Source of the DNA: Desulfobacterales bacterium
GTDB taxonomy: Bacteria > Desulfobacterota > Desulfobacteria > Desulfobacterales > C00003060
DNA: 18,132 nucleotides
Direction of reading: 5' to 3'
NCBI GenBank assembly: GCA_030616475.1
Contig: JAUWXF010000054.1
Span: forward strand, 1-18,132
A program made the translations under genes and the position numbers. Positions 1 to 14,810 of the stretch are shown here, one piece after another (position 1 is the stretch's first letter; the number at the start of each line of letters is the position of its first letter). The notes below the pieces were generated by a model. The model was given only the letters and a program-made list of their open reading frames with translations. It ran no database searches and was not told the origin of the DNA.

Positions 1-439
1 GATCTCTTTCTCGCTCCTCTTTGGGAGGCTCGACGGCTTTCTTGCGCTCAGCTATCTTTTCTTCCTCAGGGCCTGGCTCCTTCTCCACCTTTTCTTCTTC
101 TTTGACAACCTTGATAAAAGAGCCTTTAAACAAACTAACCTGCAAGGTTTTCCCCGGCAGTACGTGAATCTTCGTTTCTGAATCCTTGACCTTTAGCGTG
201 TGCAAGCCCGGTTCCACTTCCTTCAACCAGACCGGCGTCTTTCCAATATTGGAGCCATCCAGGAAAGCATCAAGACCAGGGGGCTCACTTACCACAGTCA
301 ATTTCCCATGGGCTTCCTCAGTGCCGTGGAGAGTGCGGGTCGGCGCAATCAAGTCATCAGCAAGGCAGAAAGGAGTAATAAAAAGCAGGATAGACAGGAA
401 AAATGCCGAAAGGACCGTTAATCTTGAAAACATCCTCAT
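1..439 (-). CDS. PEGA-domain secreted protein, N-terminal part (gene runs off the left edge of the window)
   Basis: Not in the ORF track because it is open at the window edge. My reverse-strand translation from the ATG (complement of 437-439) reads MRMFSRLTVLSAFFLSILLFITPFCLADDLIAPTRTLHGTEEAHGKLTVVSEPPGLDAFLDGSNIGKTPVWLKEVEPGLHTLKVKDSETKIHVLPGKTLQVSLFKG..., followed by a Glu/Lys-rich tail. It has a hydrophobic signal peptide. The stretch LTVVSEPPGLDAFLDGSNIGKTPVWL..GLHTLKV fits the PEGA-domain pattern. A GGAG Shine-Dalgarno lies at the complement of 447-450. Confidence 0.75.
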   Translation of the reverse strand, partial: MRMFSRLTVLSAFFLSILLFITPFCLADDLIAPTRTLHGTEEAHGKLTVVSEPPGLDAFLDGSNIGKTPVWLKEVEPGLHTLKVKDSETKIHVLPGKTLQVSLFKGSFIKVVKEEEKVEKEPGPEEEKIAERKKAVEPPKEERERD

Positions 440-469
440 GGTGAATCTCCTGAACACAGTATTGCTGTT

Positions 470-499
470 ATCATAATCATGATTCCTTCATTATTTCAA
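470..499 (-). promoter_or_regulatory. Candidate sigma70-type promoter for the PEGA gene
   Basis: On the minus strand: TTGAAA (complement of 494-499), a 17-nt spacer, then TTATGA(T) (complement of 470-476). It sits about 30 nt upstream of the ATG at 439. Pattern match only. Confidence 0.35.
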
Positions 500-781
500 T
501 ATATTTCTATAGCGGGTATCTGGAAGGCAAATGGAGTCAAATCTGAAAAAAAAGCTTTACAATTGCTGTAACGTGCGGAACTTAGTTCGCTTCGCTGCAC
601 TGATTCGGATCCATTTCTCAGAAATCATCGAAAGGCCGCATGCAATCTTGCCTGTGGCCTCTTTTATGTCCCATCCTGTCCATCGTGCAAAAATCCAGAC
701 AGTATTTACTCAGAGACAATAAGACAATAGGCGCTTAGTTCTAAGATTCGCGTTTTTTCTGGCAAGAAATTCTAAAAGACA

Positions 782-878
782 ATCACGAAAACGCAAAAGA
801 TCGAAAGCACGAAATAAAACAACATTCAGACTTTCGTGTCTTCGTAATTTCGTGCTTTCGTGATAAATTTTTTTTGGT
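782..878. repeat. Inverted arrays of CACGAAA-type heptamers forming a hairpin, followed by a T8 run
   Basis: A 14-bp perfect inverted repeat: cgaaagcacgaaat (802-815) and atttcgtgctttcg (847-860). An outer 9-bp pair also exists: atcacgaaa (782-790) and tttcgtgat (856-864). A T8 run lies at 868-875. Confidence 0.7.
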
Positions 879-960
879 TCCGGCCAGTCCGCCTCACTCC
901 GCTTGGCAGGAGGGCGGGCTCGTCCGGGTTAGGGGATTGGGGAAATAGGAAGGGTGTACT

Positions 961-1449
961 GTGGCTTTTGGTAAACAAGATGTAAGAATCCTGGTGGTAG
1001 ACGATGACAAGGAATTCGCAGATCTTCTGGTGGAACACCTGTCGAATCTGGGCTATTCTGCGAAAGCGGCCTACAGTGGGAGTGAAGCTCTCAGCCGGTT
1101 TGAAAACGGGGCCTTCCAACTGGTTATCACCGATCTTAAGATGCCGGATATGGACGGCATGGATCTTCTGGAGGCGGTCAAGGCTCGGGATAAGCAGGCC
1201 GTGGTTATGGTTATCACCGGGTATGGCACTATTGAATCGGCAGTCAAGGCCATAAGGAACGGGGCCTACGACTTTATTACCAAGCCGATCAAGATGGAGG
1301 AGTTGGAGGTTATCATTGAGAGGGCACTGGACAGATACGCCCTCTCGAAGCAGTTGGGTGTTTTCAAGGGGCTCACCCTGGCTCTGATCATATCTGTCCC
1401 GCTGTGGCTCATACTGGGGATTATATTGGCCGTGCTTTGGAGGAGATAA
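961..1449 (+). CDS. Receiver-only response regulator with a C-terminal transmembrane anchor (paralog A)
   Basis: The 162-aa ORF has a GTG start at 961, preceded by AGGAAGGG (947-954). REC hallmarks are present: VVDDD acidic pocket, ITDLKMPDMDG phospho-acceptor Asp, VITGYG Thr and ITKPI Lys. The C-terminus LTLALIISVPLWLILGIILAVLWRR is a single hydrophobic helix with an Arg-Arg end. Confidence 0.9.
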   Translation: MAFGKQDVRILVVDDDKEFADLLVEHLSNLGYSAKAAYSGSEALSRFENGAFQLVITDLKMPDMDGMDLLEAVKARDKQAVVMVITGYGTIESAVKAIRNGAYDFITKPIKMEELEVIIERALDRYALSKQLGVFKGLTLALIISVPLWLILGIILAVLWRR

Positions 1450-1504
1450 GAATTGGGGAATTGAGGGATTAAGTCAAATTTAGGAATTAAGGGATTGTCG
1501 AAAT

Positions 1505-1544
1505 AAGGCCCAAGTCCAGCAGGATTTGGGCCTTTCTTTTTCTT
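1505..1544 (+). terminator. Rho-independent terminator of response regulator A
   Basis: Stem aaggcccaagtcc (1505-1517) pairs with ggatttgggcctt (1522-1534), including one G-T wobble. The loop is agca. The tail is tctttttctt. Confidence 0.8.
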
Positions 1545-1678
1545 GGTTCAGAGACAATCCCGCTGAGTGAAAATGAACACGATCATTCTCCACAACCACG
1601 AGAGCAGGATTGTCGGGGGGGTGGGCACGGTGATCCGAAAATACAGGTATCACTGAAAGTGTGGGAGGGGACTTAACC

Positions 1679-1975
1679 TTACGCCGTCACGTAGATCCCC
1701 CTGCCGGCTCGCTTGATTTTGCCCTGCTTAGATGCCTTGAAGACGATATTCCTGATCTTCTTGTCTTCAAACCCAGTCTTTTTGACCAACGTAGGAACGT
1801 CAACACCCTTCTTCGATCTCTTGATAATGTTCACAACCTGGTCAGTGGCGGTCTGCGCAGCAGCTTTCTTCTTGGCAGGGGCTTTTTTCGCAGCAGCTTT
1901 TCTGGCGGGCTTAGCCTTGGCCTTTGCTTTCTTGGCCGCCTTGTTTTTCTCAAACTTTTCAACTGCCTTTTCAGA
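1679..1975 (-). pseudogene. Lys/Ala-rich histone-H1-like DNA-binding protein ORF without a usable in-frame start (possible frameshift)
   Basis: The minus-strand frame is open from the codon after a TGA (1973-1975) to the TAA (1679-1681). It translates as SEKAVEKFEKNKAAKKAKAKAKPARKAAAKKAPAKKKAAAQTATDQVVNIIKRSKKGVDVPTLVKKTGFEDKKIRNIVFKASKQGKIKRAGRGIYVTA. An ATG at the complement of 1977-1979 is one base out of frame (ATG ATC TGA). The first in-frame start is a GTG at 1834, which gives 51 aa. The two + strand ORFs at 1661..1981 and 1713..2063 are low-complexity shadows of this frame. Confidence 0.5.
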
Positions 1976-2114
1976 TCATAAACACTATCATAATAAAATA
2001 GTTGAAAGTAGTTCGGTCAGCCTGAAACAAGAGGAATATTTTGATTTGCTCAATAACATTTAGTTGGACCACTCAAAATCAATCGGCCTTTTGCATGTTA
2101 TCAATCGTATGACT

Positions 2115-2219
2115 CCAAACGATCAGAACCAATCAAACGACCAAAACCAATTCAACCAATCAAACCAACCAAACAACTCACAACGAGCTTTCAGCTTTCA
2201 GCCTTGAGCCTTCAGCTGC
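2115..2219. repeat. Tandem heptanucleotide arrays (AACCAAT-type, then GCTTTCA-type)
   Basis: The sequence reads ccaaacgatcagaaccaatcaaacgaccaaaaccaattcaaccaatcaaaccaaccaaac, then gctttca gctttca gccttga gccttca (2187-2214). Confidence 0.85.
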
Positions 2220-2240
2220 TCCATGCTCTCTGTCCGCTCC

Positions 2241-2361
2241 TATGGATTCACTAGTAACCAATAACGTTTCTCTCTGTCATCTGCCCTCTGTCATCTGACC
2301 TCTGCCCCATGCTTGAGACAAAGAGCCGAAACGAGAAACTTATAAAGTAAAGAACGTCCCC
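2241..2361. repeat. Bipartite conserved non-coding element, copy 1
   Basis: The 5' box is tatggattcactagtaaccaataacgtttctct. The 3' box is gagaaacttataaagtaaagaacgtcccc. They flank a TGTCATC-type heptamer core. The same boxes recur at 4301-4415. Confidence 0.65.
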
Positions 2362-2412
2362 TTTTTGCTTTTTGCCAAAGTCACCAAGATTCTCTAAAAG
2401 ATAAGAAAATTC

Positions 2413-2441
2413 TTGACAAATGGTAACTTTACTGTTACTTT
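2413..2441 (+). promoter_or_regulatory. Promoter plus dyad operator of the killer/antidote operon
   Basis: TTGACA (2413-2418), 17-nt spacer, TACTTT (2436-2441). The dyad GTAAC (2423-2427), N6, GTTAC (2434-2438) lies in the spacer. GTG 2452 is about 10 nt past the -10 box, so the mRNA would be near-leaderless. Confidence 0.55.
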
Positions 2442-2451
2442 GTAAATGTCC

Positions 2452-2781
2452 GTGATATAGATAAAGGAATACATAGACGAGACCGGCAAATCGCCTTACG
2501 CAGTTTGGCACGACCACTTGGATGCGAGGGCAGCTGCAAAAGTCACTACAGCATTGTATCGGCTTGAGCAGGGAAACTTTTCGAATACCAGTGGTGTTGG
2601 AGGTGGAGTTTTCGAGTACAAAATTGATTTTGGCCCCGGCTACCGGATCTATTTTGGCAAAGACGGCGAGCGTATTGTGATCATTTTGGGCGGCATAACA
2701 AAGAAACGCCAACAACAGGATATAAATGCCGCAAGGGCTTACTGGCAGGACTACAAAGCACGGAAACGAAAAAGTAAGTGA
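2452..2781 (+). pseudogene. Addiction-module killer protein (RelE/ParE superfamily, Gp49/HI1419 type) with an in-frame TAG at codon 3
   Basis: The frame reads GTG ATA TAG ATA AAG..., which translates as M I * IKEYIDETGKSPYAVWHDHLDARAAAKVTTALYRLEQGNFSNTSGVGGGVFEYKIDFGPGYRIYFGKDGERIVIILGGITKKRQQQDINAARAYWQDYKARKRKSK. The GPGYRIYF and GG.K..Q..DI motifs and the RLEQGNF segment are typical of this family. The track start (TTG 2518) would remove about 20 family-typical N-terminal residues. Confidence 0.7.
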
Positions 2782-2790
2782 GGTGCTGCA

Positions 2791-3141
2791 ATGGTCTTAA
2801 CAAGAGACTTTCGGAAAACCATACAAGCTCGTGCAAAAAGGGACCCTGCATACCGCGAAGCTATGTTGACTGAGGCGGTGGACTGTTTCCTATCTGGTGA
2901 CGTAGAAGTTGGAAAAGCAATGCTGCGCGACTATATAAACGCCACCATCGGCTTTGAGGCACTCGGTCGGCAGATCGGTAAACCCAGCAAAAGCCTTCAT
3001 CGCATGATAGGTCCATCTGGCAATCCCAAAACAAGCAACTTTTTCGAAATTCTGCATTTCTTACAGCGAAACGAAGGACTGGAGCTTGTGGTTACCGCCC
3101 GCCATCACACGCATGGTGGGATACACGGGGTTGCTCCATAG
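2791..3141 (+). CDS. Cognate HTH antidote / transcriptional regulator of the killer protein
   Basis: 116 aa. It has a GAGGTG RBS at 2780-2785, and the ATG lies 9 nt after the killer stop. TRDFRKTIQARAKRDPAYREAMLTEAV...LRDYINATIGFEALG...SKSLHRMIGPSGNPKTSNFFEIL resembles the DNA-binding partners found downstream of Gp49-like toxins. Confidence 0.8.
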   Translation: MVLTRDFRKTIQARAKRDPAYREAMLTEAVDCFLSGDVEVGKAMLRDYINATIGFEALGRQIGKPSKSLHRMIGPSGNPKTSNFFEILHFLQRNEGLELVVTARHHTHGGIHGVAP

Positions 3142-3182
3142 AAATAGGGCGAGCACTATTCAATCATTAACCTCGACTTTTT

Positions 3183-3304
3183 CGCTTTGAGCTTTGAGCT
3201 GTTCTTATGCGCTCTGCCCTCTGTCATCTGCCCTATGTCATCTGTCATCTGACCTCTGTCATCCGTCATCTGCCATCTGAGATGCCCTATGCGCTCGGCC
3301 CTCC
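3183..3304. repeat. Tandem heptanucleotide arrays (GCTTTGA, then TGTCATC/TGCCCTC types)
   Basis: The sequence reads cgctttgagctttgagctg, then ctgccctctgtcatctgccctatgtcatctgtcatctgacctctgtcatccgtcatctgccatctga. Confidence 0.85.
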
Positions 3305-3347
3305 GATTTTTGGGATGCCTGGTTAAGAAGATGACAAATTCGAAATG

Positions 3348-3376
3348 TTGTGATAAAGTTTTTAAAAGTTTGTAAT
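3348..3376 (+). promoter_or_regulatory. Candidate promoter upstream of the RHH stub and hicBA
   Basis: TTGTGA (3348-3353), 17-nt spacer, TGTAAT (3371-3376). Pattern match only. Confidence 0.35.
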
Positions 3377-3390
3377 TTGAAGGGTAATTA

Positions 3391-3549
3391 ATGAGAACGA
3401 TTCAAACCGAGGTGCCGGAGCAGCTTTATAAGAAGGCCAAAGCTTTGGTTCAAGTCCTTTCGCATTTTTTATGGATGGGAGGTAACCATGAAAACTTTAA
3501 GAGCGGACAGAATAAAAATAAGAATAGGAAACGTATGGGAAAGCCCTGA
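3391..3549 (+). pseudogene. Remnant of a ribbon-helix-helix-type antitoxin (only about the first 21 codons look native)
   Basis: This is a 52-codon ORF that I translated myself. MRTIQTEVPEQLYKKAKALVQ resembles the N-terminal beta-strand and helix of RHH antitoxins. It then turns into non-protein-like sequence that overlaps the hicB RBS and start. Confidence 0.3.
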
Positions 3550-3868
3550 ACTCCATATTTTGTTGACTCAGGAGGATGACATCGTTGTAGCCCGCTGCCT
3601 GGATTTCACAGTTTCTTCCCACGGTAAAGATGTCCAGGACGCTTTAAAATCGTTGGCAACCTCTATCAAAGAATATATTTTGACGGCAGTAGAAAACGAT
3701 GCCATTAATACAATTTTTGATCCAGCACATGGAAAGTATTGGAGGATGTATAATGAATTGGAAGCTCGACATTCCAGCGGCAAACTTAAACGGTCTCTAA
3801 AGAAATCCCTTAAATCGGTTCCCTATGAGAATATACAACAATCAACCGCTGAAATAAGCTATGCCTAA
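3488..3868 (+). CDS. hicB: HicB-family antitoxin
   Basis: 126 aa, with a GGGAGG RBS at 3476-3481. HILLTQEDDIVVARCLDFTVSSHGKDVQDALKSLATSIKEYI matches the HicB N-terminal fold pattern. It overlaps the downstream HicA gene by 8 nt (ATGCCTAA). Confidence 0.65.
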   Translation: MKTLRADRIKIRIGNVWESPELHILLTQEDDIVVARCLDFTVSSHGKDVQDALKSLATSIKEYILTAVENDAINTIFDPAHGKYWRMYNELEARHSSGKLKRSLKKSLKSVPYENIQQSTAEISYA

Positions 3869-4079
3869 GCCGCTGGAATTAAGAAAAGTCGTTAGAGTAC
3901 TTAAGAAATATGGCATCGTTTACGTAACTGGCAAAGGCAGACATCCCAAGTTTTATGATCCCGAAACCCATAAGTCGTACCCCATCAAATCCCATGGCAA
4001 AAAGACGCTTATTTTGTCCTACGCCCTTGATGACAGGATAGAGAAGTTTGACTTGCCGGGTGATGTATTCGATAGATAG
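3861..4079 (+). CDS. hicA: HicA-family mRNA interferase toxin
   Basis: 72 aa. LRKVVRVLKKYGIVYVTGKGRHPKFYDPETHKSYPIKSHGKKTL matches the YcfA/HicA pattern (G-x-G-x-H-x-K/F ... H). It is translationally coupled to hicB. Confidence 0.7.
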   Translation: MPKPLELRKVVRVLKKYGIVYVTGKGRHPKFYDPETHKSYPIKSHGKKTLILSYALDDRIEKFDLPGDVFDR

Positions 4080-4120
4080 GGTATTTTACTATATTTCTGT
4101 TTTTCCTCTTCTCAGCACTT

Positions 4121-4296
4121 TTCAGCCGTTAGGCTTATGAGCTTTTTCCCTTTCAGCTTTCAGCTTATTCCGCCTTCAGCTTCGAACGAAGTGCTCCTAA
4201 CGCCTAACGCAGCGCAGCGATACCCTCTTGCCCTCTGTCATCTGTCATCTGAGCTCTGCCCTCTGCCCTCAGCTCTCTGACCTCTGTCATCAGCTC
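4121..4296. repeat. Tandem heptanucleotide arrays (GCTTTCA, CGCCTAA, TGTCATC, TGCCCTC types)
   Basis: The arrays read ctttcagctttcagctt, cctaacgcctaacgcagcgcagcg, and ctgtcatctgtcatctgagctctgccctctgccctcagctctctgacctctgtcatc. Confidence 0.85.
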
Positions 4297-4300
4297 CTTA

Positions 4301-4415
4301 TATGGGTTCCCTAATAACCAATAACGTTACTCTTCGCGCTCTGCTCCATGCCCTATGCCCTATGCCCTTTGCGCCATTGAAAAAATGAGAAACTGGAAAA
4401 GCAAGGGGCGTCCCC
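4301..4415. repeat. Bipartite conserved non-coding element, copy 2
   Basis: The 5' box tatgggttccctaataaccaataacgttactct matches copy 1 at 29/33 positions. The 3' box is gagaaactggaaaagcaaggggcgtcccc. The core is a different heptamer family: gccctat gccctat gcccttt (4350-4370). Confidence 0.65.
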
Positions 4416-4427
4416 AATCTCACTCTC

Positions 4428-4516
4428 TTGCCTTATGCCTTAAACGTACTGGTCCTAGCGCCTAACGCAGCGCAGCTTTGCCCTATGCGCCATGCGCCAT
4501 GCGCCATGCGCCCCGT
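4428..4516. repeat. Tandem heptanucleotide arrays (CGCCTAA/CGCAGCG, then GCGCCAT x3-4)
   Basis: gcgccat gcgccat gcgccat gcgcccc lies at 4487-4514, preceded by gcgcctaacgcagcgcagc. Confidence 0.85.
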
Positions 4517-4546
4517 GCTTTATAGTTTGAACGGTGATAGACCTGA

Positions 4547-4575
4547 GAATTGTCAAGGGGAAAGATTTGACCCCT
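4547..4575. repeat. Left copy of a 29-bp inverted repeat (internal dyad GTCAA-N10-TTGAC)
   Basis: The sequence is gaattgtcaaggggaaagatttgacccct. The reverse complement of 5774-5802 is gaattgtcaaaatgaaagatttgacccct, a 25/29 match with 10-nt and 15-nt perfect blocks. Confidence 0.8.
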
Positions 4576-4753
4576 ACCCACCCCAGATTACACGGATGAA
4601 AAACAAATTTAGGGATTTAGGGATTGGGGAATTCAAGTCAGTAGGGCACGGTGAAATATGTCATTTCGCGTGGTAGGCAGTATGCAGAGAAGAGCTGATA
4701 AGCTGGTAAGTTGATGAGTTGATGAGCTGTTCTCTTTCCAGGACAAAAAAGGC

Positions 4754-4782
4754 TTGACATGCGTAACCTTACTGGTTACACT
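4754..4782 (+). promoter_or_regulatory. Promoter plus dyad operator in front of the truncated higA
   Basis: TTGACA (4754-4759), 17-nt spacer, TACACT (4777-4782). The dyad is GTAACC (4763-4768), N5, GGTTAC (4774-4779). The ATG at 4790 begins 8 nt after the -10 box, which implies a leaderless mRNA. Confidence 0.55.
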
Positions 4783-4789
4783 AAACTTA

Positions 4790-4993
4790 ATGATCAAAAC
4801 CTTATCCAAGATTGTAAATGAACGTGGTTCTATCAGTTCAGGCATGGCCTTGCGTTTATCACGGGCGTTTAACACGTCTCCGGAACTTTGGCTGAATTTA
4901 CAAAGGAACTATGACTTGTGGCATGCCTCTCACAATTCTAATGATTGGAAAAATGTCCAACCGGTAGAGAGACAGGTTAACGCTCTGGCATAA
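4790..4993 (+). pseudogene. higA: N-terminally truncated HigA-family (XRE HTH) antitoxin, 67 codons
   Basis: The ORF reads MIKTLSKIVNERGSISSGMALRLSRAFNTSPELWLNLQRNYDLWHA... The motifs I.NG.R.IS...ALRL...F.TS.E.WLNLQ..YDL match the C-terminal half of HigA. The usual N-terminal roughly 30-35 residues, including the first HTH helices, are absent. The track start (TTG 4754) lies inside the -35 box. Confidence 0.65.
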
Positions 4994-5094
4994 GATTGTG
5001 TGCTTTCCACTCTATCTGAACCATTCCCTTATTTCCGCATATCTATTCCCTGGCCTCCAAAAATTGGTTTTATGAGCTGATAAGCAGGTGAGCT

Positions 5095-5583
5095 ATGGCT
5101 ATTGATAGAGAAGATGCAAGAATTCTGGTGGTAGATGATGATAAGGAGCTGGCCGATGGGCTGGTAGAGTCTTTGTCGAATCTGGGCTATTTGGCGGCTG
5201 CTGCTTATGGGGGCCGTGAAGCGCTGACCAGGTTTGAACAGGGTGCCTTCCAACTGGTTATCACCGATCTCAAGATGCCGGACATGGACGGTATGGAGCT
5301 TCTGGAGGCGGTCAAGGCGCGGGATAAGCAGGCCGTGGTTATCGTCATCACCGGTTATGGCACTATCGAATCGGCAGTCAAGGCCATAACGAACGGGGCC
5401 TACGACTTTATCACCAAGCCAATCAAGATGGAGGAGCTGGAGGTCATCATTGACCGGGCACTCGAAAGACATGCGATGTCTAAACAATTGGGGGTCTTCA
5501 AGGGCTTGACCCTGGCTCTGATCATCTCTGTCCCGCTGTGGCTCATACTGGGCATTGTACTTGCCGTGCTTTGGAGGAGATAA
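5095..5583 (+). CDS. Receiver-only response regulator with a C-terminal transmembrane anchor (paralog B)
   Basis: 162 aa with an ATG at 5095. By my manual alignment, 140/162 residues are identical to paralog A. All REC catalytic residues and the C-terminal hydrophobic helix are conserved. Confidence 0.9.
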   Translation: MAIDREDARILVVDDDKELADGLVESLSNLGYLAAAAYGGREALTRFEQGAFQLVITDLKMPDMDGMELLEAVKARDKQAVVIVITGYGTIESAVKAITNGAYDFITKPIKMEELEVIIDRALERHAMSKQLGVFKGLTLALIISVPLWLILGIVLAVLWRR

Positions 5584-5638
5584 GAATTGGGGAATTGAGG
5601 GATTAAGTCAAATTTAGGAATTAAGGGATTGTCGAAAT

Positions 5639-5676
5639 AAGGCCCAAGTCCGAGAGGATTTGGGCCTTTCTTTTTT
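5639..5676 (+). terminator. Rho-independent terminator of response regulator B
   Basis: Same stem as at 1505-1534: aaggcccaagtcc pairs with ggatttgggcctt. The loop is gaga instead of agca. The tail is tctttttt. Confidence 0.8.
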
Positions 5677-5773
5677 ATGGCTCAAAGACAATTCCACTGA
5701 GTGGAAAAGACGAGCAAAACAAAGGGGTTAGATCTCAACATTTGACCGCAGTAAAATAAGCCAAGTCTCGATC

Positions 5774-5802
5774 AGGGGTCAAATCTTTCATTTTGACAAT
5801 TC
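5774..5802. repeat. Right copy of the 29-bp inverted repeat
   Basis: The sequence is aggggtcaaatctttcattttgacaattc. See 4547-4575. Confidence 0.8.
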
Positions 5803-5830
5803 ATTCAGAAGAGTGAGGCTACCTTTGTAA

Positions 5831-6271
5831 GTTTTATACCAGAAAAAAATAGAACCTCAACATTTTGCTGCCTGTATCAGTACAGACAAAGGGATAAGAC
5901 AGATTGATGCTGTCAGGCATTTCAGTTACCATAATACAATGGAAGAAGAATTGACCAAAGTCCCACTTCCCAACTCGTATCAAGAAACAGTCTATGTGAT
6001 GCATGCACCGCCGTTTCAAACCAATTTGGACGTCTTGTATGACAGGCGCTCGGTTGGAAGCCGCGCCATCCGGCAATTCATCGAAAAAAACCAGCCTTAC
6101 CTGACTTTGCACGGCCACATACATGAAGCGCCTTCACGTTCCGGAAGTTACTGGGACAAAATCGGCGATACCGTTTGCGTCAATCCCGGCCAGGCGACCA
6201 AGGACCTCCATGCCGTCATGTTTGAGCTGGAAGATGTCTTGAATACAATGAATCATACCATCTTTGGATAA
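5831..6271 (+). pseudogene. Metallophosphoesterase (calcineurin-like), C-terminal fragment only
   Basis: VYVMHAPPFQTNLD...GS.AIRQFIEKNQPYLTLHGHIHE...VCVNPG carries the late motifs (H-x-P and GHxH). The N-terminal metal-binding motifs (DxH, GDxxDR, GNH[DE]) are absent. The frame is open only back to a TAA at 5828-5830. The first ATG is at 5939. Confidence 0.7.
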
Positions 6272-6487
6272 CTTTGATATTATAGGAATTTCCTTTTTTG
6301 CCCCACCAAACCCTCCCCCTGTTCCAGACTGGATAACATACCTGACAGACCGATTTGAGCGTCTAACACCCTGGTGTTCTTCTCGAGTTTATTGCCGCGG
6401 TTGGACGTTCTGTAGCCCTTGATTTTGCCGGCCATTATGCTTATTGTAACATAGTACAAAGAGCTAAGTTCCGATCTGGGGAATGGC

Positions 6488-6739
6488 ATGAACAAAATGC
6501 GTGTAAAGTGCATCAAGTGCAAAAAGGAATGGCAAAAAGATTCCTCGCTTTCTTGGGGACGTGAGGATATTACATCATCGCTGTGCGATTCCTGCTTTAG
6601 AAAAACAATCACTCCTGTCATTCACAGGAAACAATTGCATAGAGGTCATTTAGACTGTTTTGACAAACCGGGCAACTACTGCGATGAATTTCAGTGCAAG
6701 TACAGAAAATGGTGTTCCCGCGCAAAAGAAGCAGCATAA
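6488..6739 (+). CDS. Small Cys-rich protein (83 aa), putative zinc-binding, function unknown
   Basis: GGGGA lies 7 nt upstream of the ATG. Cysteines form CxxC (CIKC) ... CxxC (CDSC), then C-x10-C-x4-C-x6-C (DCFDKPGNYCDEFQCKYRKWC). I recognise no family. Confidence 0.55.
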   Translation: MNKMRVKCIKCKKEWQKDSSLSWGREDITSSLCDSCFRKTITPVIHRKQLHRGHLDCFDKPGNYCDEFQCKYRKWCSRAKEAA

Positions 6740-6983
6740 AAGTTCTTCGAATTAACAATGCCCTGCATAGCTTCCATCCTTAATTTTGAATACATCTGAT
6801 AGTACAATGGAATAATGGGTTCTGCGAAAATGGGACAGTGGCTTATTGGCAAAATCTCTCTTAACAGGGAAGCTAATAAATGTGTAACTTCCTTTAAAAA
6901 CCAACATTCCAACATTCCATTATGAGCGCAAGCTTCACTTCGTGTCCAGTATTCCAATTGCGGAGCGAAGCGGAGCTAAGTTC

Positions 6984-7295
6984 TTAAACTTTGTTGAAAA
7001 ATTCTTGTAACTGCTTGATAACAGCAACTTTTGTATCTAAAGATGTATCATCCTCAAATAAGAACTCCAGTAGAAATATCATCTTATAATCCACCGCTGA
7101 TGTCTTATATTCCTGGAGAGAGGTAACCTTGACGTCCTTCACTTTGCCATAATCACCTGCCTTAAACAGATCGGTTTTTCTCAGGATGAGATTGATTGCC
7201 TCCTGGGCATCGTTAGGACTATCCAACACAATTTCAATTCCATCCAATTTTTTCAAAGCCTTAATCATCTTTTCGCTTTCGACCTTTATTTTCAT
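6984..7295 (-). CDS. Hypothetical protein (103 aa) in AT-rich DNA
   Basis: I prefer the ATG at the complement of 7293-7295 (MKIKVESEKMIKALKKLDG...) because GGAAGAG precedes it. The track ORF extends to 7403 with an Arg/Cys-rich N-terminus that does not look like protein. No recognisable domain. Confidence 0.5.
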   Translation of the reverse strand: MKIKVESEKMIKALKKLDGIEIVLDSPNDAQEAINLILRKTDLFKAGDYGKVKDVKVTSLQEYKTSAVDYKMIFLLEFLFEDDTSLDTKVAVIKQLQEFFNKV

Positions 7296-7522
7296 TTCAC
7301 TCTTCCATGAGAACCAATTTCGTCTCGTTCTATCTCGTACAGGTAGCCGTCTTTCTTTGTGCCTGTATTGTATTATCATCATACAACATTTTAGACATTT
7401 CAAGCATTTTGATTATGAGGGTATTGTCTTTGACAGGTTCTTTAGCAGATAAGTTATTTACATTATAAAGAATTTCGGGTTTCCCGAAAAACCTTTTTTG
7501 TGGACACGTTTGGCCGAAAACC

Positions 7523-7551
7523 TTGACAAAAGTTATGATTTCAATTAGAGA
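7523..7551 (+). promoter_or_regulatory. Candidate promoter for the YihY-family gene
   Basis: TTGACA (7523-7528), 17-nt spacer, TAGAGA (7546-7551). Pattern match only. Confidence 0.3.
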
Positions 7552-7599
7552 TCTACAATGAAATCGATTGGTTGATTGAGTATAGATCGTGTGGTCGTC

Positions 7600-8994
7600 A
7601 TGAATGCAAAACAACTCAAGACAGCTATGACCAGGTTCATTTGGGGAGCCGAGGTAGCCTCCTTGCCTTGGTGCAAGGCCTGGCTTATCAGCGCACTTCG
7701 AGTGTCCTACGTGGTTGTATACGATCTAGCTAAAGGTCAGCTCACCCTCCAGGCGATGAGCCTCGTCTATACCACACTGCTTGCCCTGGTGCCGCTGCTT
7801 GCCTTCAGCTTCTCCGTTTTGAAGGGGTTCGGGGTACACAACCAGGTTGAACCGTTGCTGCTGAACTTCCTGGAGCCGTTGGGAGAGAAAGGGATCGAGA
7901 TCAGCGGTCGCATCATTGGTTTTGTGGATAACGTCAAGACAGGGATCCTTGGCTCTGTTGGCCTTGCGCTTCTCATCTACACGGTCATCTCTTTGATCCG
8001 GAAGATCGAGCGAGCATTCAACTACATGTGGCACGTCAAGCGGAGCCGGCCGTTTGGACAGTGCTTCAGCGACTACTTGAGCGTGATTTTGATTGGCCCT
8101 GTGCTCGTGTTTTCCGCCCTCGGCATCATGGCATCCGTAATGAGCACGGCGGTGGTGCAGAAGCTGGTGGCAATTGAACCGTTTGGCAGCCTTTTAAAGG
8201 TGGCGAGCCAACTGCTGCCATACCTCCTGATCATCGTCGCATTCACGTTCTTCTATATCTTTATACCCAACACCAGGGTGCGCCTTCGCTCCGCGTTAAC
8301 CGGTGCGGTGATAGGAGGTGTTCTGTGGGGAGCCACGGGTTGGGCGTTCGCTTCCTTTGTCGTGACCTCCTCCAAGTACACGGCTATTTACTCCGGCTTA
8401 GCGATTCTCATAATGTTCATGCTCTGGCTCTACCTTAGCTGGCTGATCTTGCTCGTCGGGGCGAGCATAGCCTTTTATCACCAGCATCCCGAGTCCCTGA
8501 CTACGGATCGGCACGAACTACAGTTGAGTAACCGTCTGAAAGAGAAGCTGTCCCTGCTGATAATGCTCCTGATCGGGCAGAACTACTATCACCGCCGTCC
8601 CGCATGGACTATGGAAGGCCTCGCACAGCGCCTCCGCGTACCCATGGAAACTCTGGAACCCATCTTAGAGACCCTGGAGCAGTATGGCCTGTTAACACAG
8701 ACCGGCGATGAGCCTCCATCCTACTTGCCTGCCCGACCCCTGGAGACTACCGAGCTTAAAGACGTACTCGATGCGGTTCGCGCAGCCCATGAAGTGTCCC
8801 ATCTTAATGTGCAAAGACTCCCTGCCGAGCTTGTCGTTGAGCAACTGGTCGACCACCTCGACCAGGCCTTAGCCGAGGCGCTCCAGGGTCGTACCTTAAA
8901 GGAGCTGGCATTATCGGAGCCGCCACCTGTGACATCGGTCTCCCAATCGCCGCCGCCGCAGGCGGCCCCCTCTGGGCGCCGCCGTGAGGTCTGA
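7600..8994 (+). CDS. YihY/BrkB-family inner-membrane protein with a long cytoplasmic C-terminal extension
   Basis: Family-typical segments are present: LTLQAMSLVYTTLLALVPLLAF, IERAFNYMWHVKRSRPF, YIFIPNTRVRLRSALTGA and YSGLAILIMFMLWLYLSWLILLVGA. The ATG at 7600 is preferred over the track TTG at 7576. The last roughly 170 aa are soluble and end in a Pro-rich tail. Confidence 0.9.
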   Translation: MNAKQLKTAMTRFIWGAEVASLPWCKAWLISALRVSYVVVYDLAKGQLTLQAMSLVYTTLLALVPLLAFSFSVLKGFGVHNQVEPLLLNFLEPLGEKGIEISGRIIGFVDNVKTGILGSVGLALLIYTVISLIRKIERAFNYMWHVKRSRPFGQCFSDYLSVILIGPVLVFSALGIMASVMSTAVVQKLVAIEPFGSLLKVASQLLPYLLIIVAFTFFYIFIPNTRVRLRSALTGAVIGGVLWGATGWAFASFVVTSSKYTAIYSGLAILIMFMLWLYLSWLILLVGASIAFYHQHPESLTTDRHELQLSNRLKEKLSLLIMLLIGQNYYHRRPAWTMEGLAQRLRVPMETLEPILETLEQYGLLTQTGDEPPSYLPARPLETTELKDVLDAVRAAHEVSHLNVQRLPAELVVEQLVDHLDQALAEALQGRTLKELALSEPPPVTSVSQSPPPQAAPSGRRREV

Positions 8995-9279
8995 ATGCTG
9001 AATGGCGTCAACTTGACATGGGACAAAATGAGCATTTGGCTAACAGAAAAATCATTAGAGCAGACTACCGCCGCTGAAACCAGCCTTCCAGTCTGTCGAT
9101 TCGTCGAGATTCAGCCCACCCCACCAAACCGATGAGACATTGCGTCTTGAGCGTCATAAAGACCTCCTGCATCTGGCGAGACGATATTGTAAGACAAAGA
9201 GAAGATTTCTGCAACAGCCTCGGCGGGGTTTGAGAAAAAGCGACAGGCCTAAACGCCATGAACCCTAATCCAAAATTCC

Positions 9280-9308
9280 TTGACATCAGAGCTTATGAAG
9301 ATTATCCA
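9280..9308 (+). promoter_or_regulatory. Candidate promoter for the small ORF and hybrid kinase
   Basis: TTGACA (9280-9285), 17-nt spacer, TATCCA (9303-9308). Pattern match only. Confidence 0.3.
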
Positions 9309-9371
9309 GATATCCATGGTAGACTCGTTTGCGTAGCTATTAATAGATCCAACCATTAGAGAGGAGGCAAA

Positions 9372-9515
9372 ATGACACGATCTTATGCCGTGCATTTTCC
9401 TCAACGCTCACCACAAGGCTCTTTACCCATCCAGCTTGAGGTGGTTTGGAACCTATTATGTTACCCGATGGACTTTTTTGTCTTAGGGGCAATTGCAGGA
9501 TTCTCTGATGACTAA
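9372..9515 (+). CDS. Small ORF (47 aa) overlapping the start of the hybrid kinase gene
   Basis: A strong GAGGAGG lies at 9361-9367, 4 nt before the ATG at 9372. My translation is MTRSYAVHFPQRSPQGSLPIQLEVVWNLLCYPMDFFVLGAIAGFSDD. The stop at 9513-9515 overlaps kinase ATG 9508 (GATGACTAA). It is below the size cutoff of the ORF track. Confidence 0.35.
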   Translation: MTRSYAVHFPQRSPQGSLPIQLEVVWNLLCYPMDFFVLGAIAGFSDD

Positions 9516-11118
9516 GAAACCGACTTACGAAGAATTGGAACAAAGGGTCAAGGAGTTAGAAAAGGAAGCCGTTGAGCGCAGGCACGCGGAGGAAGAAATA
9601 AGAATTTATCGATCTATGGTTGAATCCGCCCATGATGCTATCTTTTTCAAAGACTTGAAAAGCCGCTATGTTATCACCAACGCCAAAACCTTAGAAGCCT
9701 TTGGGTTATCCAAAGAGAAAGTTATTGGAAGGAATGACTATGAAATAATGCCAAATAAGGAAGAAGCGAAGAAAAATATTGAAGATGACCAGATTGTTTT
9801 CAAGACAGGTAAGCCAAAAGAAATTACTAAGCACATGACTGGCAGAGATGCAAAAGAATACTGGTTCCAAGCCATAAAGGTTCCGCAATTTGATCATAAA
9901 GGAAATATTGTTGGGCTTGTTGGCATTGCCCGTGACGTCACCGAGCAAAAGCAGGCGGAAGAAGAAAAAAGGAGACTTGAAGCCCAACTCCAACAAGCCC
10001 GGAAGCTGAAGGCCATTGGCACCTTAGCCGGAGGCATTGCCCATGACATCAATAACGTGCTCATGGGTATCCAGGGGCACTCGTCTTTGGCGCTGCTGTA
10101 TGCTGACTCCGGCCGTCCCCATTCTGAACATCTCAAGGGAATAGAGGATATGGTTCAAAGGGGCGCAGCTCTTACCAAACAACTTTTAGGTTTTGCCATG
10201 GGCGGCAAATACGAGGTGAGACCTACGGACCTAAACGAGCTAATCGAGGATAGTTCTGAGATGTTTGGCCGCACCAGAAAAGAGATAAAGATTTATAGAA
10301 AATACCAGAAAGACATCCGGCCGGTCGAAGCAGATCGGGGGCAGATTGATCAGGTGTTGTTAAACCTCTATGTCAATGCCTGGCATGCCATGCCGCGTGG
10401 CGGAGACCTCTATATTGAAACAAGCAGCGTTGTGCTTGACAAAAACTATACCAAGCCTTTTGGTGTGAACCCTGGCAATTATGTCAGGATATCTGTAACA
10501 GACACCGGAGTGGGTATGGATGAGGCTACCCAGCAAAGGATATTTGACCCCTTTTTTACCACCAAAGAGATGGGCCGTGGAACAGGCTTAGGTCTCGCCT
10601 CTGCTTATGGGATCATCAAGAACCATGGCGGCGTCATGAATGTTTACAGTAAAAAGGGTGAAGGAACCACCTTTAACGTTTACCTGCCGGCTTCGGAAAA
10701 GGAGGTCACAATAAGAGAAAAGAAACTGGCTGACAAGATCTTAAGGGGCACAGAGACTGTTCTTATTGTAGATGATGAGGCTATGATTCTTGATGTTGGC
10801 GAGGAGCTGCTGAAAGAAATGGGGTACAAGGTATTGCTGGCCAGAAGTGGGAAAGAAGCAGTAGAACTTTACAGGAAATACAAACACGAGATTGATCTGG
10901 TCATCCTCGACATGATCATGCCCGACATGGGCGGTGGCGAGGCCTATGACACAATGAAAGAGAACAACCCCAAGATAAAGGTTCTTCTTTCAACCGGCTA
11001 CAGCATAAGAGGCCAGGCCACCGAGATCCTGGAACGCGGCTGTAATGGCTTTATTCAGAAGCCGTTCAAAATAAAAGAGTTGTCTAGAAAAATAAGGGAA
11101 ATTCTAGACAAGCAATAG
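9508..11118 (+). CDS. Hybrid sensor histidine kinase (coiled coil, PAS, HisKA, HATPase_c, REC)
   Basis: The PAS region is YRSMVESAHDAIFFKD...GLVGIARDVTEQK. The H-box is GGIAHDINNVL and the N-box is LLNLYVNAWHAM. G1 is DTGVGM, F is FDPFFTTK and G2 is GTGLGLA. The C-terminal receiver is VLIVDDE...LVILDMIMPDMGG...STGY...FIQKPF. The ATG at 9508 is preferred to the track TTG at 9493. Confidence 0.9.
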   Translation: MTKKPTYEELEQRVKELEKEAVERRHAEEEIRIYRSMVESAHDAIFFKDLKSRYVITNAKTLEAFGLSKEKVIGRNDYEIMPNKEEAKKNIEDDQIVFKTGKPKEITKHMTGRDAKEYWFQAIKVPQFDHKGNIVGLVGIARDVTEQKQAEEEKRRLEAQLQQARKLKAIGTLAGGIAHDINNVLMGIQGHSSLALLYADSGRPHSEHLKGIEDMVQRGAALTKQLLGFAMGGKYEVRPTDLNELIEDSSEMFGRTRKEIKIYRKYQKDIRPVEADRGQIDQVLLNLYVNAWHAMPRGGDLYIETSSVVLDKNYTKPFGVNPGNYVRISVTDTGVGMDEATQQRIFDPFFTTKEMGRGTGLGLASAYGIIKNHGGVMNVYSKKGEGTTFNVYLPASEKEVTIREKKLADKILRGTETVLIVDDEAMILDVGEELLKEMGYKVLLARSGKEAVELYRKYKHEIDLVILDMIMPDMGGGEAYDTMKENNPKIKVLLSTGYSIRGQATEILERGCNGFIQKPFKIKELSRKIREILDKQ

Positions 11119-11140
11119 CACGCACTTCCGAATTGTGGAC

Positions 11141-12313
11141 ATGGCATTCGAAAAGGCGAGAAGCATGCCTGTTAACAATTTCCGCTACAAAGTAGAAAGG
11201 CTATTGTCCTTTGCTGACGTTAAAATCGACGGCGACCGCCCTTGGGATCTTCAGGTTCATAACGAGGACCTGTATGCAAGAATACTGGCGAAGGGATCGC
11301 TGGGTTTGGGCGAGTCTTATATGGACGGCTGGTGGGACTGCAACAGACTTGACGAATTTTTCAATAGAATTCTACGGGCCAAATTGGATGAGAGAGTCAA
11401 ACCATGGTCGGGGCTTTTCGGTATTCTTAAAGCTAAATTGTTCAACCCCCAGAAACCTTCACGTGCCTTTCAAATTGGGCAGCGCCATTATGATATTGGC
11501 AATAACCTTTACCGGCATATGCTTGGCGAGCGCTTAATCTATAGCTGCGGCTACTGGGAAAATGCGTCCACCCTGGACCAAGCACAGGAGGCCAAGCTTG
11601 ACCTGGTCTGCCGAAAATTAGACCTTCAGCCGGGAATGCATGTCCTGGATATCGGTTGCGGCTGGGGAGGGACGGCCAAATTTGCTGCTCAGCGTTACCA
11701 GGTTGAAGTAGTCGGCATCACCGTTTCTGAAGAACAGGCAAGGTTCGGGAAGGAACTCTGCCAGGATCTTCCGGTTGAGATCCGCTTACAAGACTACCGT
11801 GGCCTGGAAGGTGCTTTCGACCGTATTCTTTCCCTTGGCATGTTCGAACACGTCGGTTACAAGAATTACGTCACGTTTATGCGCGCCGTCAACAGCTACT
11901 TAAAGGATGGGGGGCTATTTCTGCTGCATACTATTGGTGGATACCGCTCGGTTACCAGGACCGACCCCTGGATAGAGCGTTACATCTTTCCAAATTCCAT
12001 GCTGCCCTCCGCAAGGCAGATCTGCGCCGCCGCCGAAGGGTTGTTTATTCTTGAGGACTGGCATAGTTTTGGTGCCGATTACGATAAGACCCTTATGCAC
12101 TGGTTTCGGAATTTCCATAATAATTGGGATACCCTTAAAGAAGAATATGACGAGCGATTCTACCGGATGTGGAAGTATTATCTCCTATCATTCGCCGGGT
12201 CGTTCCGTGCAAGGATAAACCAGTTGTGGCAGATAGTTCTTTCCCCCGGAGGCATACCGGGCGGTTACCGGCCACATCGCATATGCCGTATCGCACGATG
12301 CACTACGAATTAG
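11141..12313 (+). CDS. cfa: Cyclopropane-fatty-acyl-phospholipid synthase
   Basis: It aligns along its length to E. coli Cfa as I recall it: GSLGLGESYMDGWWDC, HYDIGNNLY, VLDIGCGWGG (SAM-binding motif), SLGMFEHVG, DPWIERYIFPN, EDWHSFGADYDKTL and QLWQIV. The start is ambiguous among 11135 (GTG), 11141 and 11165. Confidence 0.9.
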   Translation: MAFEKARSMPVNNFRYKVERLLSFADVKIDGDRPWDLQVHNEDLYARILAKGSLGLGESYMDGWWDCNRLDEFFNRILRAKLDERVKPWSGLFGILKAKLFNPQKPSRAFQIGQRHYDIGNNLYRHMLGERLIYSCGYWENASTLDQAQEAKLDLVCRKLDLQPGMHVLDIGCGWGGTAKFAAQRYQVEVVGITVSEEQARFGKELCQDLPVEIRLQDYRGLEGAFDRILSLGMFEHVGYKNYVTFMRAVNSYLKDGGLFLLHTIGGYRSVTRTDPWIERYIFPNSMLPSARQICAAAEGLFILEDWHSFGADYDKTLMHWFRNFHNNWDTLKEEYDERFYRMWKYYLLSFAGSFRARINQLWQIVLSPGGIPGGYRPHRICRIARCTTN

Positions 12314-12999
12314 ACAAAAGATGGCTCTGCATTGAGCTTCCTGCCACAGGGTACAGGGAGGCATGGAAACTTCAGGGTCAGCTTGTGGCTGCAAGAAAAG
12401 ACAAAATCATTGACACAAATGTTGTCCTGTTATTGGAACACCCCCCTGTTTTCACCCTTGGTCGCAGGGGCGGGTTGAACAACCTGACGGTGTCCGCGAA
12501 TTTTCTGAAAAAAGCGGGCATTCCCGTAATCCAGGTGGAGCGCGGCGGCAGCATTACTTTTCACGGCCCTGGCCAGCTCGTTATGTATCCGATCATTGAT
12601 CTCAATGTTGCCAGGCTGAGAGTGGTCGATTATGTTGAAAACCTCGAAGAAGTCATGATTCGGGCCGCTCTGGACTGGGGCATTAAGACTGAGAGGAATC
12701 CCATGAACAGGGGTGTATGGGTGGGCAATAACAAACTGGGGAGCGTCGGGATAGCTATTCGCCGGGGAATCTGCTTCCACGGCCTTGCATTTAACGTGAA
12801 TCCCTCACTAAAGCCTTTTGGCTGGATAAGTCCATGCGGTCTTAAAGATATAAGGATGACATCCATGGAGCGGGAGCTTTCCCGTAAAGTATCCATGAAT
12901 CAAGTACGCGAGACCGTAAAACGTCACGTCCAAGCGGTTTTCGGGGTTGAGCTTATCATGACAAGCCTATTAGAAGTACAAGGTCTTCTAAAAACGTAA
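12298..12999 (+). CDS. lipB: Lipoyl(octanoyl) transferase
   Basis: Motifs are LLLEHPPVFTLGRRG, VERGGSITFHGPGQLVMYPI, KLGSVGIAIRRGICFHGLAFNV and SPCG. The track ORF start at 12169 is an upstream in-frame extension overlapping cfa. ATG 12298 or 12283 is more plausible and overlaps the cfa end by 16-31 nt. Confidence 0.9.
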   Translation: MHYELDKRWLCIELPATGYREAWKLQGQLVAARKDKIIDTNVVLLLEHPPVFTLGRRGGLNNLTVSANFLKKAGIPVIQVERGGSITFHGPGQLVMYPIIDLNVARLRVVDYVENLEEVMIRAALDWGIKTERNPMNRGVWVGNNKLGSVGIAIRRGICFHGLAFNVNPSLKPFGWISPCGLKDIRMTSMERELSRKVSMNQVRETVKRHVQAVFGVELIMTSLLEVQGLLKT

Positions 13000-13005
13000 A
13001 TATAT

Positions 13006-13036: not shown

Positions 13037-13097
13037 ATTTTGCCCGAGCGACCTGCTCGGCCAAAAGGCGTCATCCGCCACAGGCGGATAGGATGAG

Positions 13098-14804: not shown

Positions 14805-14810
14805 GTGGCA

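Follow-up and report, generated by a model that had tools for sequence, protein, structure and literature searches.

Two inverted repeats in a Desulfobacterales genome as probable orphan terminal repeats of a TIRYT transposase unit

The 18,132-nt stretch of DNA analysed here, referred to in its entirety as the window (contig JAUWXF010000054.1 of the Desulfobacterales bacterium assembly GCA_030616475.1, positions 1 to 18,132), carries a pair of inverted 29-nt repeats at positions 4547-4575 and 5774-5802. We propose, with a probability of about 0.88, that these 29-mers are orphan terminal inverted repeats (TIRs) of a TIRYT unit, i.e., of a gene for an HUH/Y1-type tyrosine transposase bounded by long TIRs, and that they are neither the ends of an element, nor an invertible switch, nor a local operator pair. 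Such units as a kind are already known and barely studied, while the subtype and the host range described below appear to be new. Under this reading, two orphan TIRs in a strain-variable toxin-antitoxin region replace the wrong annotation of a 1.26-kb mobile or invertible element.

The repeat pair and its family

The right arm is the reverse complement of the left arm (GAATTGTCAAGGGGAAAGATTTGACCCCT) except for a central triplet (GGG versus AAT), which holds all three mismatches, and the arms match at 26 of 29 positions (90% complementarity as computed) in perfect blocks of 10 and 16 nt. The pair had been reported at these coordinates in an original prediction, made by a model from the sequence alone, and it stands as such; the identity of 25/29 and the blocks of 10 and 15 nt given there are corrected by the recount. 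Upon masking of the triplet, the 29-mer has exactly two matches in the window and none of 200 dinucleotide-preserving shuffles gave any match, which bears out the earlier judgement that chance is an unlikely explanation. A third copy at up to three mismatches could not be found within the window. The internal dyad GTCAA-N10-TTGAC pointed out at that time is present and weak as a hairpin, and the window sequence also agrees that the flanks outside and inside the repeats are unrelated and that a target-site duplication is absent.

The repeat belongs to a dispersed family. One genome per bacterial and archaeal species was scanned with the pattern TTGTCAA-NNN-GAAAGATTTGAC, which requires an exact 22-nt core with 19 specified bases and leaves the trailing CCC and the leading AW of the motif outside the required pattern. 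Matches to this core were obtained in 99 public genome stretches, where chance alone would give about 4 by our own estimate (approximately 1.2e12 positions searched); loci are designated below by L and a number. The hosts are mostly Desulfobacterota (Desulfobacteria, Syntrophales and Desulfobulbaceae), followed by Nitrospirota/Thermodesulfovibrionia, Planctomycetota (including a 2.9-Mb contig and also Scalindua), a metagenome-assembled genome (MAG) of the PVC group, Atribacterota, Aminicenantia, Aegiribacteria, Fibrobacteres, Tritonobacter and the isolate Desulfofustis glycolicus, with megabase-scale contigs among the host sequences. A scan of the IMG/VR viral contigs with the motif gave 0 matches.

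The 108 copies in the 99 public loci and the two of the window make a total of 110, of which 109 had sufficient flank to enter a flank profile and represent 99 unique contexts. The conserved unit is 27 nt long, consisting of A, A/T, TTGTCAA, a variable triplet (mostly GAG), GAAAGATTTGAC and CCC, i.e., AW-TTGTCAA-NNN-GAAAGATTTGACCCC, and the information content just outside it is approximately 0. Because the family profile has such sharp edges, each 29-mer of the window is understood as the 27-mer with one base per end that agrees by coincidence. Over all loci, 34 motif copies adjoin a transposase gene or a fragment of one and 79 are solo; the solo copies are mostly intergenic, the open frame that covers them having a median of 74 aa versus 230 aa at random positions. 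The original prediction had itself named an abundant dispersed repeat with no pairing preference as a finding that would count against a paired function, and this is essentially what was observed, with 17 exact-core copies on 14 contigs of the MAG 'Desulfobacteria bacterium Co_bin7' and 110 copies overall.

Identities as CRISPR, integron attC or tRNA-fragment sequences were considered from the sequence and dropped after the link to a transposase emerged. Units of the TIR-spacer-TIR type, resembling miniature inverted-repeat transposable elements (MITEs), were rejected for L003, L015, L028, L031, L033 and L042, where no second TIR lies within 420 nt upstream of the recurrent inner-flank families and the sequences look like other repeats joined to a single TIR. 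Two copies are interrupted: in L025 (5348-5400) and L046 (179-230), about 19 nt (AAAGGGCCTTTTAATGGGT or AGGTGCCCTTTAATGGGT) are inserted within the TIR terminus, between ...GATTTGAC and GACCCCC, with GAC duplicated.

The cognate transposase unit

Two recurrent flank types on the TTGTCAA side of the motif are the 5' and 3' ends of one gene. Inverted motif copies flank this transposase gene, of 325-337 aa, in eight loci, the open reading frame (ORF) of L047 and L012 being 337 aa long. Both ends are visible in seven loci (L012, L047, L059, L065, L070, L087 and L097), only the left end in L035 and L096, and only the right end in L099, whose contig begins just 22 nt ahead of the ATG. The intact unit of approximately 1.07 kb reads 5'-GGGGTCAAATCTTTC-NNN-TTGACAA, 27 nt, ATG, gene, TTGTCAA-NNN-GAAAGATTTGACCCC-3'. 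The distance of 27 nt between the left repeat and the ATG is constant in all nine loci with a visible left end, and a -10-like hexamer (TAATAT, TAATGT, TACTAT or similar) stands 16-17 nt behind the TTGACA of this repeat and 5-7 nt before the ATG. This arrangement suggests that a promoter is built into the left repeat, with TTGACA as its -35 box, and that the mRNA would be leaderless or near-leaderless. At the other end, the right repeat encodes the last residues of the protein (LSRGKI* or LSI*) together with the stop codon.

Membership of the Y1/HUH group was assessed on the motif-adjacent protein of related loci, the window itself being without such a gene. The protein matches Pfam Y1_Tnp (E=6.5e-15) and its best-scoring model is NCBIfam REP_Tyr_transpos ('REP-associated tyrosine transposase') with 76.9 bits against a cut-off of 80; the IS200 model gives 16.9 bits against a cut-off of 55. 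Residues N59, H60 and H62 of the HUH motif and R118, Y119, I120, N123 and P124 of the tyrosine motif are invariant in 11 homologues, which also share a conserved C-terminal block EIG...DYSxVSQxRKR. The C-terminal region matches DnaA-type models weakly (Bac_DnaA_C, E=0.0035, below the gathering score; C-terminus of TIGR00362 DnaA, residues 238-329, E=1.9e-4). A tblastn search of the PLSDB plasmids with the transposase returned only distant homologues below 36% identity and no plasmid vehicle. In the isolate Desulfofustis glycolicus (DSM 9705, L090), too, the transposase homologue near the motif is a distant one, with 28% identity and a separation of about 240 nt from the motif.

Where the TIR core is exact or one base off, pairwise protein identity is 39-77%, the L070/L096 pair with 95% being an exception, and proteins that are about 45% identical still retain both TIRs within one mismatch. 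The transposase of L069 is more distant (32-42% identity) and its TIR is clearly diverged. The TIR may be under several constraints at once, if it serves as a recognition site, a promoter and part of the coding sequence. The 5' or 3' ends of the transposase gene recur at several contig ends with differing outer flanks in DX4.bin27, Thermodesulfovibrionales MAG-1293 and PVC MAG 0.426, and this suggests multi-copy, IS-like behaviour; the MAGs are fragmented, so that the copy counts, in the tens per MAG, may differ from the true genome totals.

A profile-guided scan of metagenome contigs added 80 homologues with 30-64% identity, of which 54 are complete. Inverted repeats with one arm upstream of the start and the other around the stop codon are present in 46 of the 54 complete homologues versus none of 54 shuffled controls. 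GGGTCA is present at both ends in 37 and a variant core in 5 more; the left repeat contains TTGAC in 33, and the coding sequence runs into the right repeat in 39. The outer ends of this wider family are mostly GGGGTCAG or GGGGTCAA, and the family-wide pattern can be written approximately as GGGGTCA[AGC][AG][TC]C, a few variable bases and TTGAC(A), the motif of the window being one subtype of it. The dyad GTCAA-N10-TTGAC is not kept in other TIR subtypes, e.g., GGGGTCACATCTTCATATGTCA. Given the family-wide pattern, the 'internal dyad' is best read as an outer core GGGGTCA(A) and an inner -35-like TTGACA. A REP-like single-stranded hairpin substrate was rejected on the same grounds and on folding: the consensus 27-mer forms a 5-bp stem with a 10-nt loop at -2.0 kcal/mol (z of about -0.8 to -1.0), and 38 of 200 shuffles fold equally well.

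The unit can be placed among known systems with the help of two papers, each cited here for the sections consulted, which were the only ones to use the term TIRYT in the literature searched. Di Nocera et al. 2013 (BMC Genomics 14:522, PMC3733652) introduced the names TIRtron and TIRYT for RAYT-like tyrosine transposase genes that are associated with long TIRs and not with REPs, noted that many of these TIRs share GGGGWSAS and that one TIR often overlaps the gene end, and described some TIRs as forming 'moderately abundant families' of single, dimeric or grouped copies. Quentin et al. 2018 (BMC Genomics 19:475, PMC6006769) assigned most TIRYTs to subclass 2.1 of TnpA_Y1, present in 14.9% of strains, found no REP-like sequences near the genes of this subclass, and reported a Bac_DnaA_C-like C-terminal domain for subgroup 2.1.2, GGGGWSAS being unlike a DnaA box. 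The present unit resembles this kind in having a RAYT-like HUH/Y1 gene between long TIRs, one of them upstream and the other overlapping the 3' end; in its outer end GGGGTCAA, which fits 7 of the 8 positions of GGGGWSAS with A instead of S at the last; and in TIRs that are also dispersed as single, paired and clustered copies (tandem pairs in L004, L047, L060 and L100). The weak C-terminal match to DnaA-C-type helix-turn-helix (HTH) models (Bac_DnaA_C) may be a further likeness, to subgroup 2.1.2. The subtype GGGGTCAAATCTTTC-NNN-TTGACAA and its hosts (Desulfobacteria, Thermodesulfovibrionia, Planctomycetota and others) are absent from the consulted parts of both papers. These parts likewise do not mention a near-invariant 25-nt core in the face of 39-77% protein identity (L069 excluded), a fixed 27-nt spacing to the ATG with a -35 box inside the TIR, tandem repeats seeded by the outer end, or synteny breaks at solo copies.

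The similarity to REP/RAYT systems (REPtrons, REPINs) lies in the same branch of enzymes and in a gene between inverted copies of a short, mostly intergenic dispersed repeat. Unlike these, the present unit is without a GTAG or CGTC tag and without a stable hairpin, its copies seem to number tens and not hundreds, its gene is apparently multi-copy and IS-like in some genomes, and its repeat is common to several phyla rather than lineage-specific. With IS200/IS605 elements (TnpA_IS200; IS608, ISDra2) it shares the HUH/Y1 catalytic core and the expectation that a target-site duplication is absent. The ends of these elements are subterminal, directly oriented hairpins in place of TIRs, whereas the present ends are true inverted repeats that fold weakly, and the score of the IS200 model is low. 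In MITEs, the outer ends of the TIRs point outward and a target-site duplication is usual. The resemblance to them is that short TIR sequences from a transposase-bearing parent occur without an enzyme of their own. The definition of a MITE quoted in PMC3733652 is a short non-coding unit of 70-300 bp; the window copies, in contrast, face inward at a distance of 1.2 kb, have genes between them and can be found separately in related genomes. A MITE or composite element bounded by the window copies was rejected for the inward outer ends and for the presence of one copy each in L100 and L095.

The window copies in related genomes and their interpretation

With respect to an intact unit the two window copies are inside-out, as their outer GACCCC/GGGGTC ends face the 1.2-kb segment and their transposase-bearing sides face away. 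No transposase remnant is found beside either copy by tblastn with 11 transposases against 4000-4600 and 5750-6500 up to E=20, the sole co-located match being 6-7 residues encoded by the motif itself, and the L047 transposase has no match in the whole window at E<1e-3. No recombinase is found among the 20 window ORFs scanned against Pfam, and both searches agree with the earlier statement that the window has no recombinase or transposase gene. An Rfam scan of 4300-6000 gave nothing credible and no overlap with any known RNA family.

Two closely related sequences separate the copies. L100, a JGI metagenome contig whose response regulator P0002 is 99% identical to copy B of the window, is 98-99% identical to the window over the hicBA cassette and 4796-5742 and 86% identical over the region of the left TIR (4430-4807). 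It carries the left TIR at the orthologous site (7570) and the segment, lacks the right copy at the corresponding place and continues, past window position 5742, with 7.2 kb of other toxin-antitoxin and unrelated genes before it rejoins the window at 6984. L095, a contig of Co_bin7, shares the main blocks from window position 5768 onward at 95-99% identity and has the orthologous right TIR at 1284-1305 with one different base in the variable triplet; to its left, an IHF/HU-like gene and a 108-aa ORF take the place of the segment. Since L100 and L095 each hold one copy without the other, the pair was not inherited or moved as a unit, and the window copies are independently acquired or retained. 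A single 1.26-kb element with the pair as its ends is therefore not supported, on grounds of both orientation and separability.

Synteny breaks outside the outer end of the right TIR, at 6 nt with respect to L095 and at 31 nt with respect to L100. The right copy does mark a rearrangement boundary, as predicted, on this outer side and not through the truncation of the metallophosphoesterase gene to which the boundary had been attributed: the gene fragment, said to follow the repeat immediately, starts 137 nt away and its truncation is an internal deletion. A metagenome scan with a 25-mer from the inner side of the right copy, in search of an empty site, gave 0 matches.

Co_bin7 contains, besides its dispersed TIR copies, one intact unit (L047) and the decayed units L039 and L091; in L039, a response-regulator paralogue is followed by a left-type TIR with a degenerate promoter and start. 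The further copies of the 29-mer and the linked transposase that the original prediction had proposed to look for are both found in this related MAG. Its suggestion of mobile-element termini is right in that the repeats are TIRs of a transposase unit with a cognate enzyme in a ~98% identical MAG, and wrong in taking the pair as one element.

From these features a working model of the TIR can be put forward. The TIRYT protein would recognize the TIR, with the outer core GGGGTCA as the end for recognition and cleavage, and the inner TTGACA would also serve the transposase promoter as its -35 box. The protein would nick and rejoin DNA at the TIR by HUH/tyrosine chemistry, and orphan TIRs would be either remnants of decayed full units or products of a REP-like copying of an end alone. 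TIR copies would also act as preferred junctions of rearrangement, and this would explain the synteny breaks by the right copy and the tandem repeats seeded by outer ends that are described in the next section.

Several points weigh against assigning the window copies to a TIRYT unit. The window has no transposase, and a TIRYT gene in the source genome is deduced from the ~98% identical MAG and not observed. The TIR folds poorly as single-stranded DNA, unlike the substrates of characterized Y1 enzymes, and its apparent invariance is partly inflated because the genome scan demanded an exact core. The copies lie 1.2 kb apart in the window and recur in the same order, right-end (RE) then left-end (LE), 5.3 kb apart in L100, so that an unexplained local preference is possible. 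No clean pair of filled and empty sites was found for any solo copy. Binding, cleavage and mobilization of solo TIRs by the TIRYT protein are likewise deductions; the searched literature contains no experimental study of TIRYT activity on its TIRs, and Di Nocera et al. (PMC3733652, sections consulted) posed such assays as future work.

Among the alternatives, the one that fares best, at what we consider very long odds, takes the copies as operator sites through which a DNA-binding regulator (e.g., HigA or the C-terminal HTH of the TIRYT protein) co-regulates local genes. Two copies of a dyad operator had been offered as a possibility in the original prediction, and the idea holds only for the left repeat of intact units, which overlaps the transposase -35 box and at which a bound protein would autoregulate; the dyad and the weakly detected DnaA-C-like HTH also speak for it. 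Neither window copy, though, overlaps the predicted promoter of a local gene, the higBA promoter lying 180 nt from the left copy and being independently conserved in L100, and the wider TIR family does not share the dyad, nor do solo copies in 79 unrelated contexts fit an operator.

A slightly less credible possibility, and one already largely refuted, is that the pair forms the termini of one non-autonomous or composite element (4547-5802) moved in trans by a TIRYT protein, with higA and the response regulator as cargo. The sequences are indeed transposon TIRs in inverted orientation, the region is hypervariable among near-identical genomes, and L100 has copies in the RE-then-LE order as well, at 7570 and 12890/12928. 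Against this, the outer GGGGTCA ends point toward the cargo and not toward the flanks, the cargo and left copy of L100 are followed by different DNA, IHF-like and other genes stand in for the cargo next to the right copy of L095, and a second copy of the 1.26-kb unit was not found among 182 fetched loci.

Least credible of all is a phase-variable segment inverted by a recombinase acting at the two repeats so as to switch flanking or enclosed genes, for although inverted repeats 1.2 kb apart enclose a promoter and the TIR contains an outward-facing TTGACA hexamer, no recombinase was detected among the 20 window ORFs, the repeat family is dispersed and tied to a Y1 transposase rather than an invertase, the orientation of the segment is unchanged in L100, where the second repeat is missing (a single orientation in both segment-bearing genomes), and the outward TTGACA of the right copy has no usable -10 box behind it. 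An outward promoter from solo copies was rejected for the same lack of an acceptable -10 box.

As orphan TIRs of a TIRYT unit, the copies acquire a significance beyond their locus. A 27-bp TIR that remains almost unchanged while the transposase diverges to ~40% identity, together with the fixed promoter-in-TIR layout and the possible footprints of recombination described below, is a well-defined substrate for biochemistry, and the function of TIRYT and the spread of solo TIRs thereby become testable with a short oligonucleotide and one protein. The invariance of the TIR across phyla and the junction repeats described below matter more than the locus itself, if they are true reflections of enzyme activity.

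Recombination at the repeats and other features of the region

The outer flanks of the TIRs are enriched in tandem repeats. TRF arrays are found in 34 of 107 outer versus 11 of 105 inner flanks, and a gap-free test for junction repeats was positive in 21 of 108 outer versus 6 of 108 inner flanks (Fisher p=0.003) and in 22 of 500 random sites. The repeated unit of the outer flank begins inside the TIR terminus (e.g., GACCCCAACG x3.5, TGACCCCAAGGGGCC x4). The TIR together with 12-20 nt is tandemly duplicated in L004, L047 and L060, and in L100 the truncation point of a response-regulator paralogue coincides exactly with two tandem left-type TIRs, behind which a decayed transposase promoter is found. 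The association of these events with the TIR suggests that the TIRs are recombinogenic, and the tandem repeats at the junctions may be the footprint of repeated nick-and-rejoin or of slippage at the transposase cleavage site. Gene truncations and synteny breaks at TIR copies likewise suggest recombinogenic ends.

A more far-reaching proposal, which we put forward as a speculation with the odds clearly against it, is that the TIR is an active junction at which the TIRYT protein repeatedly nicks and rejoins DNA, swaps cassettes between TIRs in toxin-antitoxin-rich regions and leaves tandem repeats of the TIR terminus. If this were true, junction repeats could seed the hepta- and octamer arrays that punctuate these genomes, and a near-invariant TIR in at least five phyla would mark a broad-host-range, integron-like shuffling of cassettes by an HUH enzyme.

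The junction repeats consist of 2-5 tandem copies of a 6-19-nt unit (mostly 6-16 nt), made of (TT)TGACCCC and a few flank bases, as seen in L049 (268-340), L051 (7770, minus strand), L080 (1711-1800), L094 (732-800), L031 (482-560), L060 (3712-3821) and the window (4575-4640). Arrays of heptamers and octamers (TGCCCTC, TGTCATC, TGACCTC, TGCGCCA, GGAATTGA and GGGATTTA) separate toxin-antitoxin cassettes in the window and follow both of its response-regulator genes; they are dense at 2188-2330, 3185-3300, 4150-4520, 1457-1500, 4604-4636, 5591-5636 and 17030-17122. The array unit TGACCTC resembles the TIR end TGACCCC.

The features around the two copies are collected in Table 1.

Table 1. Features of the window at and between the two TIR copies and to the right of them
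Feature	Position	Strand	Remarks
Left solo TIR copy	4548..4574	+	AATTGTCAAGGGGAAAGATTTGACCCC; right-end (RE) orientation, outer GACCCC end points right into the segment
Sigma-70-like higBA promoter, TTGACA-17-TACACT	4754..4782	+	Inside the segment, separate from the TIR system
higB'-'higA in-frame fusion ORF, 67 aa	4790..4993	+	HTH_3; MIKTLSKIVNERG...
Response regulator copy B	5095..5583	+	Receiver domain and C-terminal hydrophobic tail; passenger of the segment, not part of the TIR system
Intrinsic-terminator-like hairpin and T-run	5639..5668	+	After the response regulator gene
Window-unique 25 nt	5743..5767		Between the L100-shared block (ends 5742) and the L095-shared block (starts 5768), blastn
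Right solo TIR copy	5775..5801	-	+ strand GGGGTCAAATCTTTCATTTTGACAATT; left-end (LE) orientation, outer GGGG points left into the segment
Metallophosphoesterase C-terminal fragment	5939..6271	+	5' part lost by internal deletion right of the TIR

The higBA promoter is found in L100 directly upstream of an intact higB, the complete higB-higA pair of that contig lying at 7812-8418. In comparison with L100, the gene that had been described as a truncated higA does lack the 5' part of higA and is an in-frame higB'-'higA fusion, produced by a 384-bp deletion (L100 7837-8220) that removed most of higB along with the 5' part of higA and is unrelated to the TIR.

To the right of the segment, the window and L095 share the right TIR, 48 nt beyond it and a CAAAGGGATAAG block, and the metallophosphoesterase gene has decayed in complementary ways in the two genomes: the window (5850-6271) keeps the C-terminal part with the GHIHE motif, and L095 (1357-1620) keeps a frameshifted N-terminal part with the GNDD motif followed by unrelated DNA. 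At 1357-1375 of L095, 48 nt from the inner end of the TIR, the sequence ATGGGGTCAGGCAATC resembles GGGGTCAGGTCT, the commoner TIRYT TIR core among the metagenomic units; a TIR of a second type may be present at this hotspot.

The 162-aa response regulator is present in two copies in the window (953-1576 and 5087-5710), which are 83-86% identical and have their octamer repeats and terminator in common. Other paralogues, in L039 (1815-2311) and L100 (12722-12882), have a TIR copy at their end or are truncated by one. A recurrent unit (TTTAACGGGGCAGGCG)CAGATTACACGGAT adjoins the left TIR (window 4586-4600); L100 has a version that is 17 nt longer at the same site (7604-7637) and others at 9388-9410 and 12690-12720. 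A third family of short repeats, TTTTMTRCCAGAAAAAAC..., has three members in the window, at 728-770 (-), 5832-5859 (+) and 17157-17199 (+); one of the three is only 30 nt away from the right TIR, on the side of its inner end, and recurs in L095.

Elsewhere in the window, a gene of the PD-(D/E)XK_3 nuclease family (13098-13460) is located between lipB and lipA, bracketed by 27-28-nt inverted repeats (13004-13031 and 13673-13700) and by a 64-nt direct repeat of the type TTAGCCACAGACCCACACAGAC (13005-13068 and 13457-13520). The region 13004-13700 looks like a separate small insertion module, and a similar repeat is found upstream of the L039 response regulator. Another strain-variable insertion lies between a BrkB/YihY-like gene and a PAS histidine kinase, where about 200 bp in the window (8973-9173) correspond to about 1.7 kb in L095 (4311-5992).

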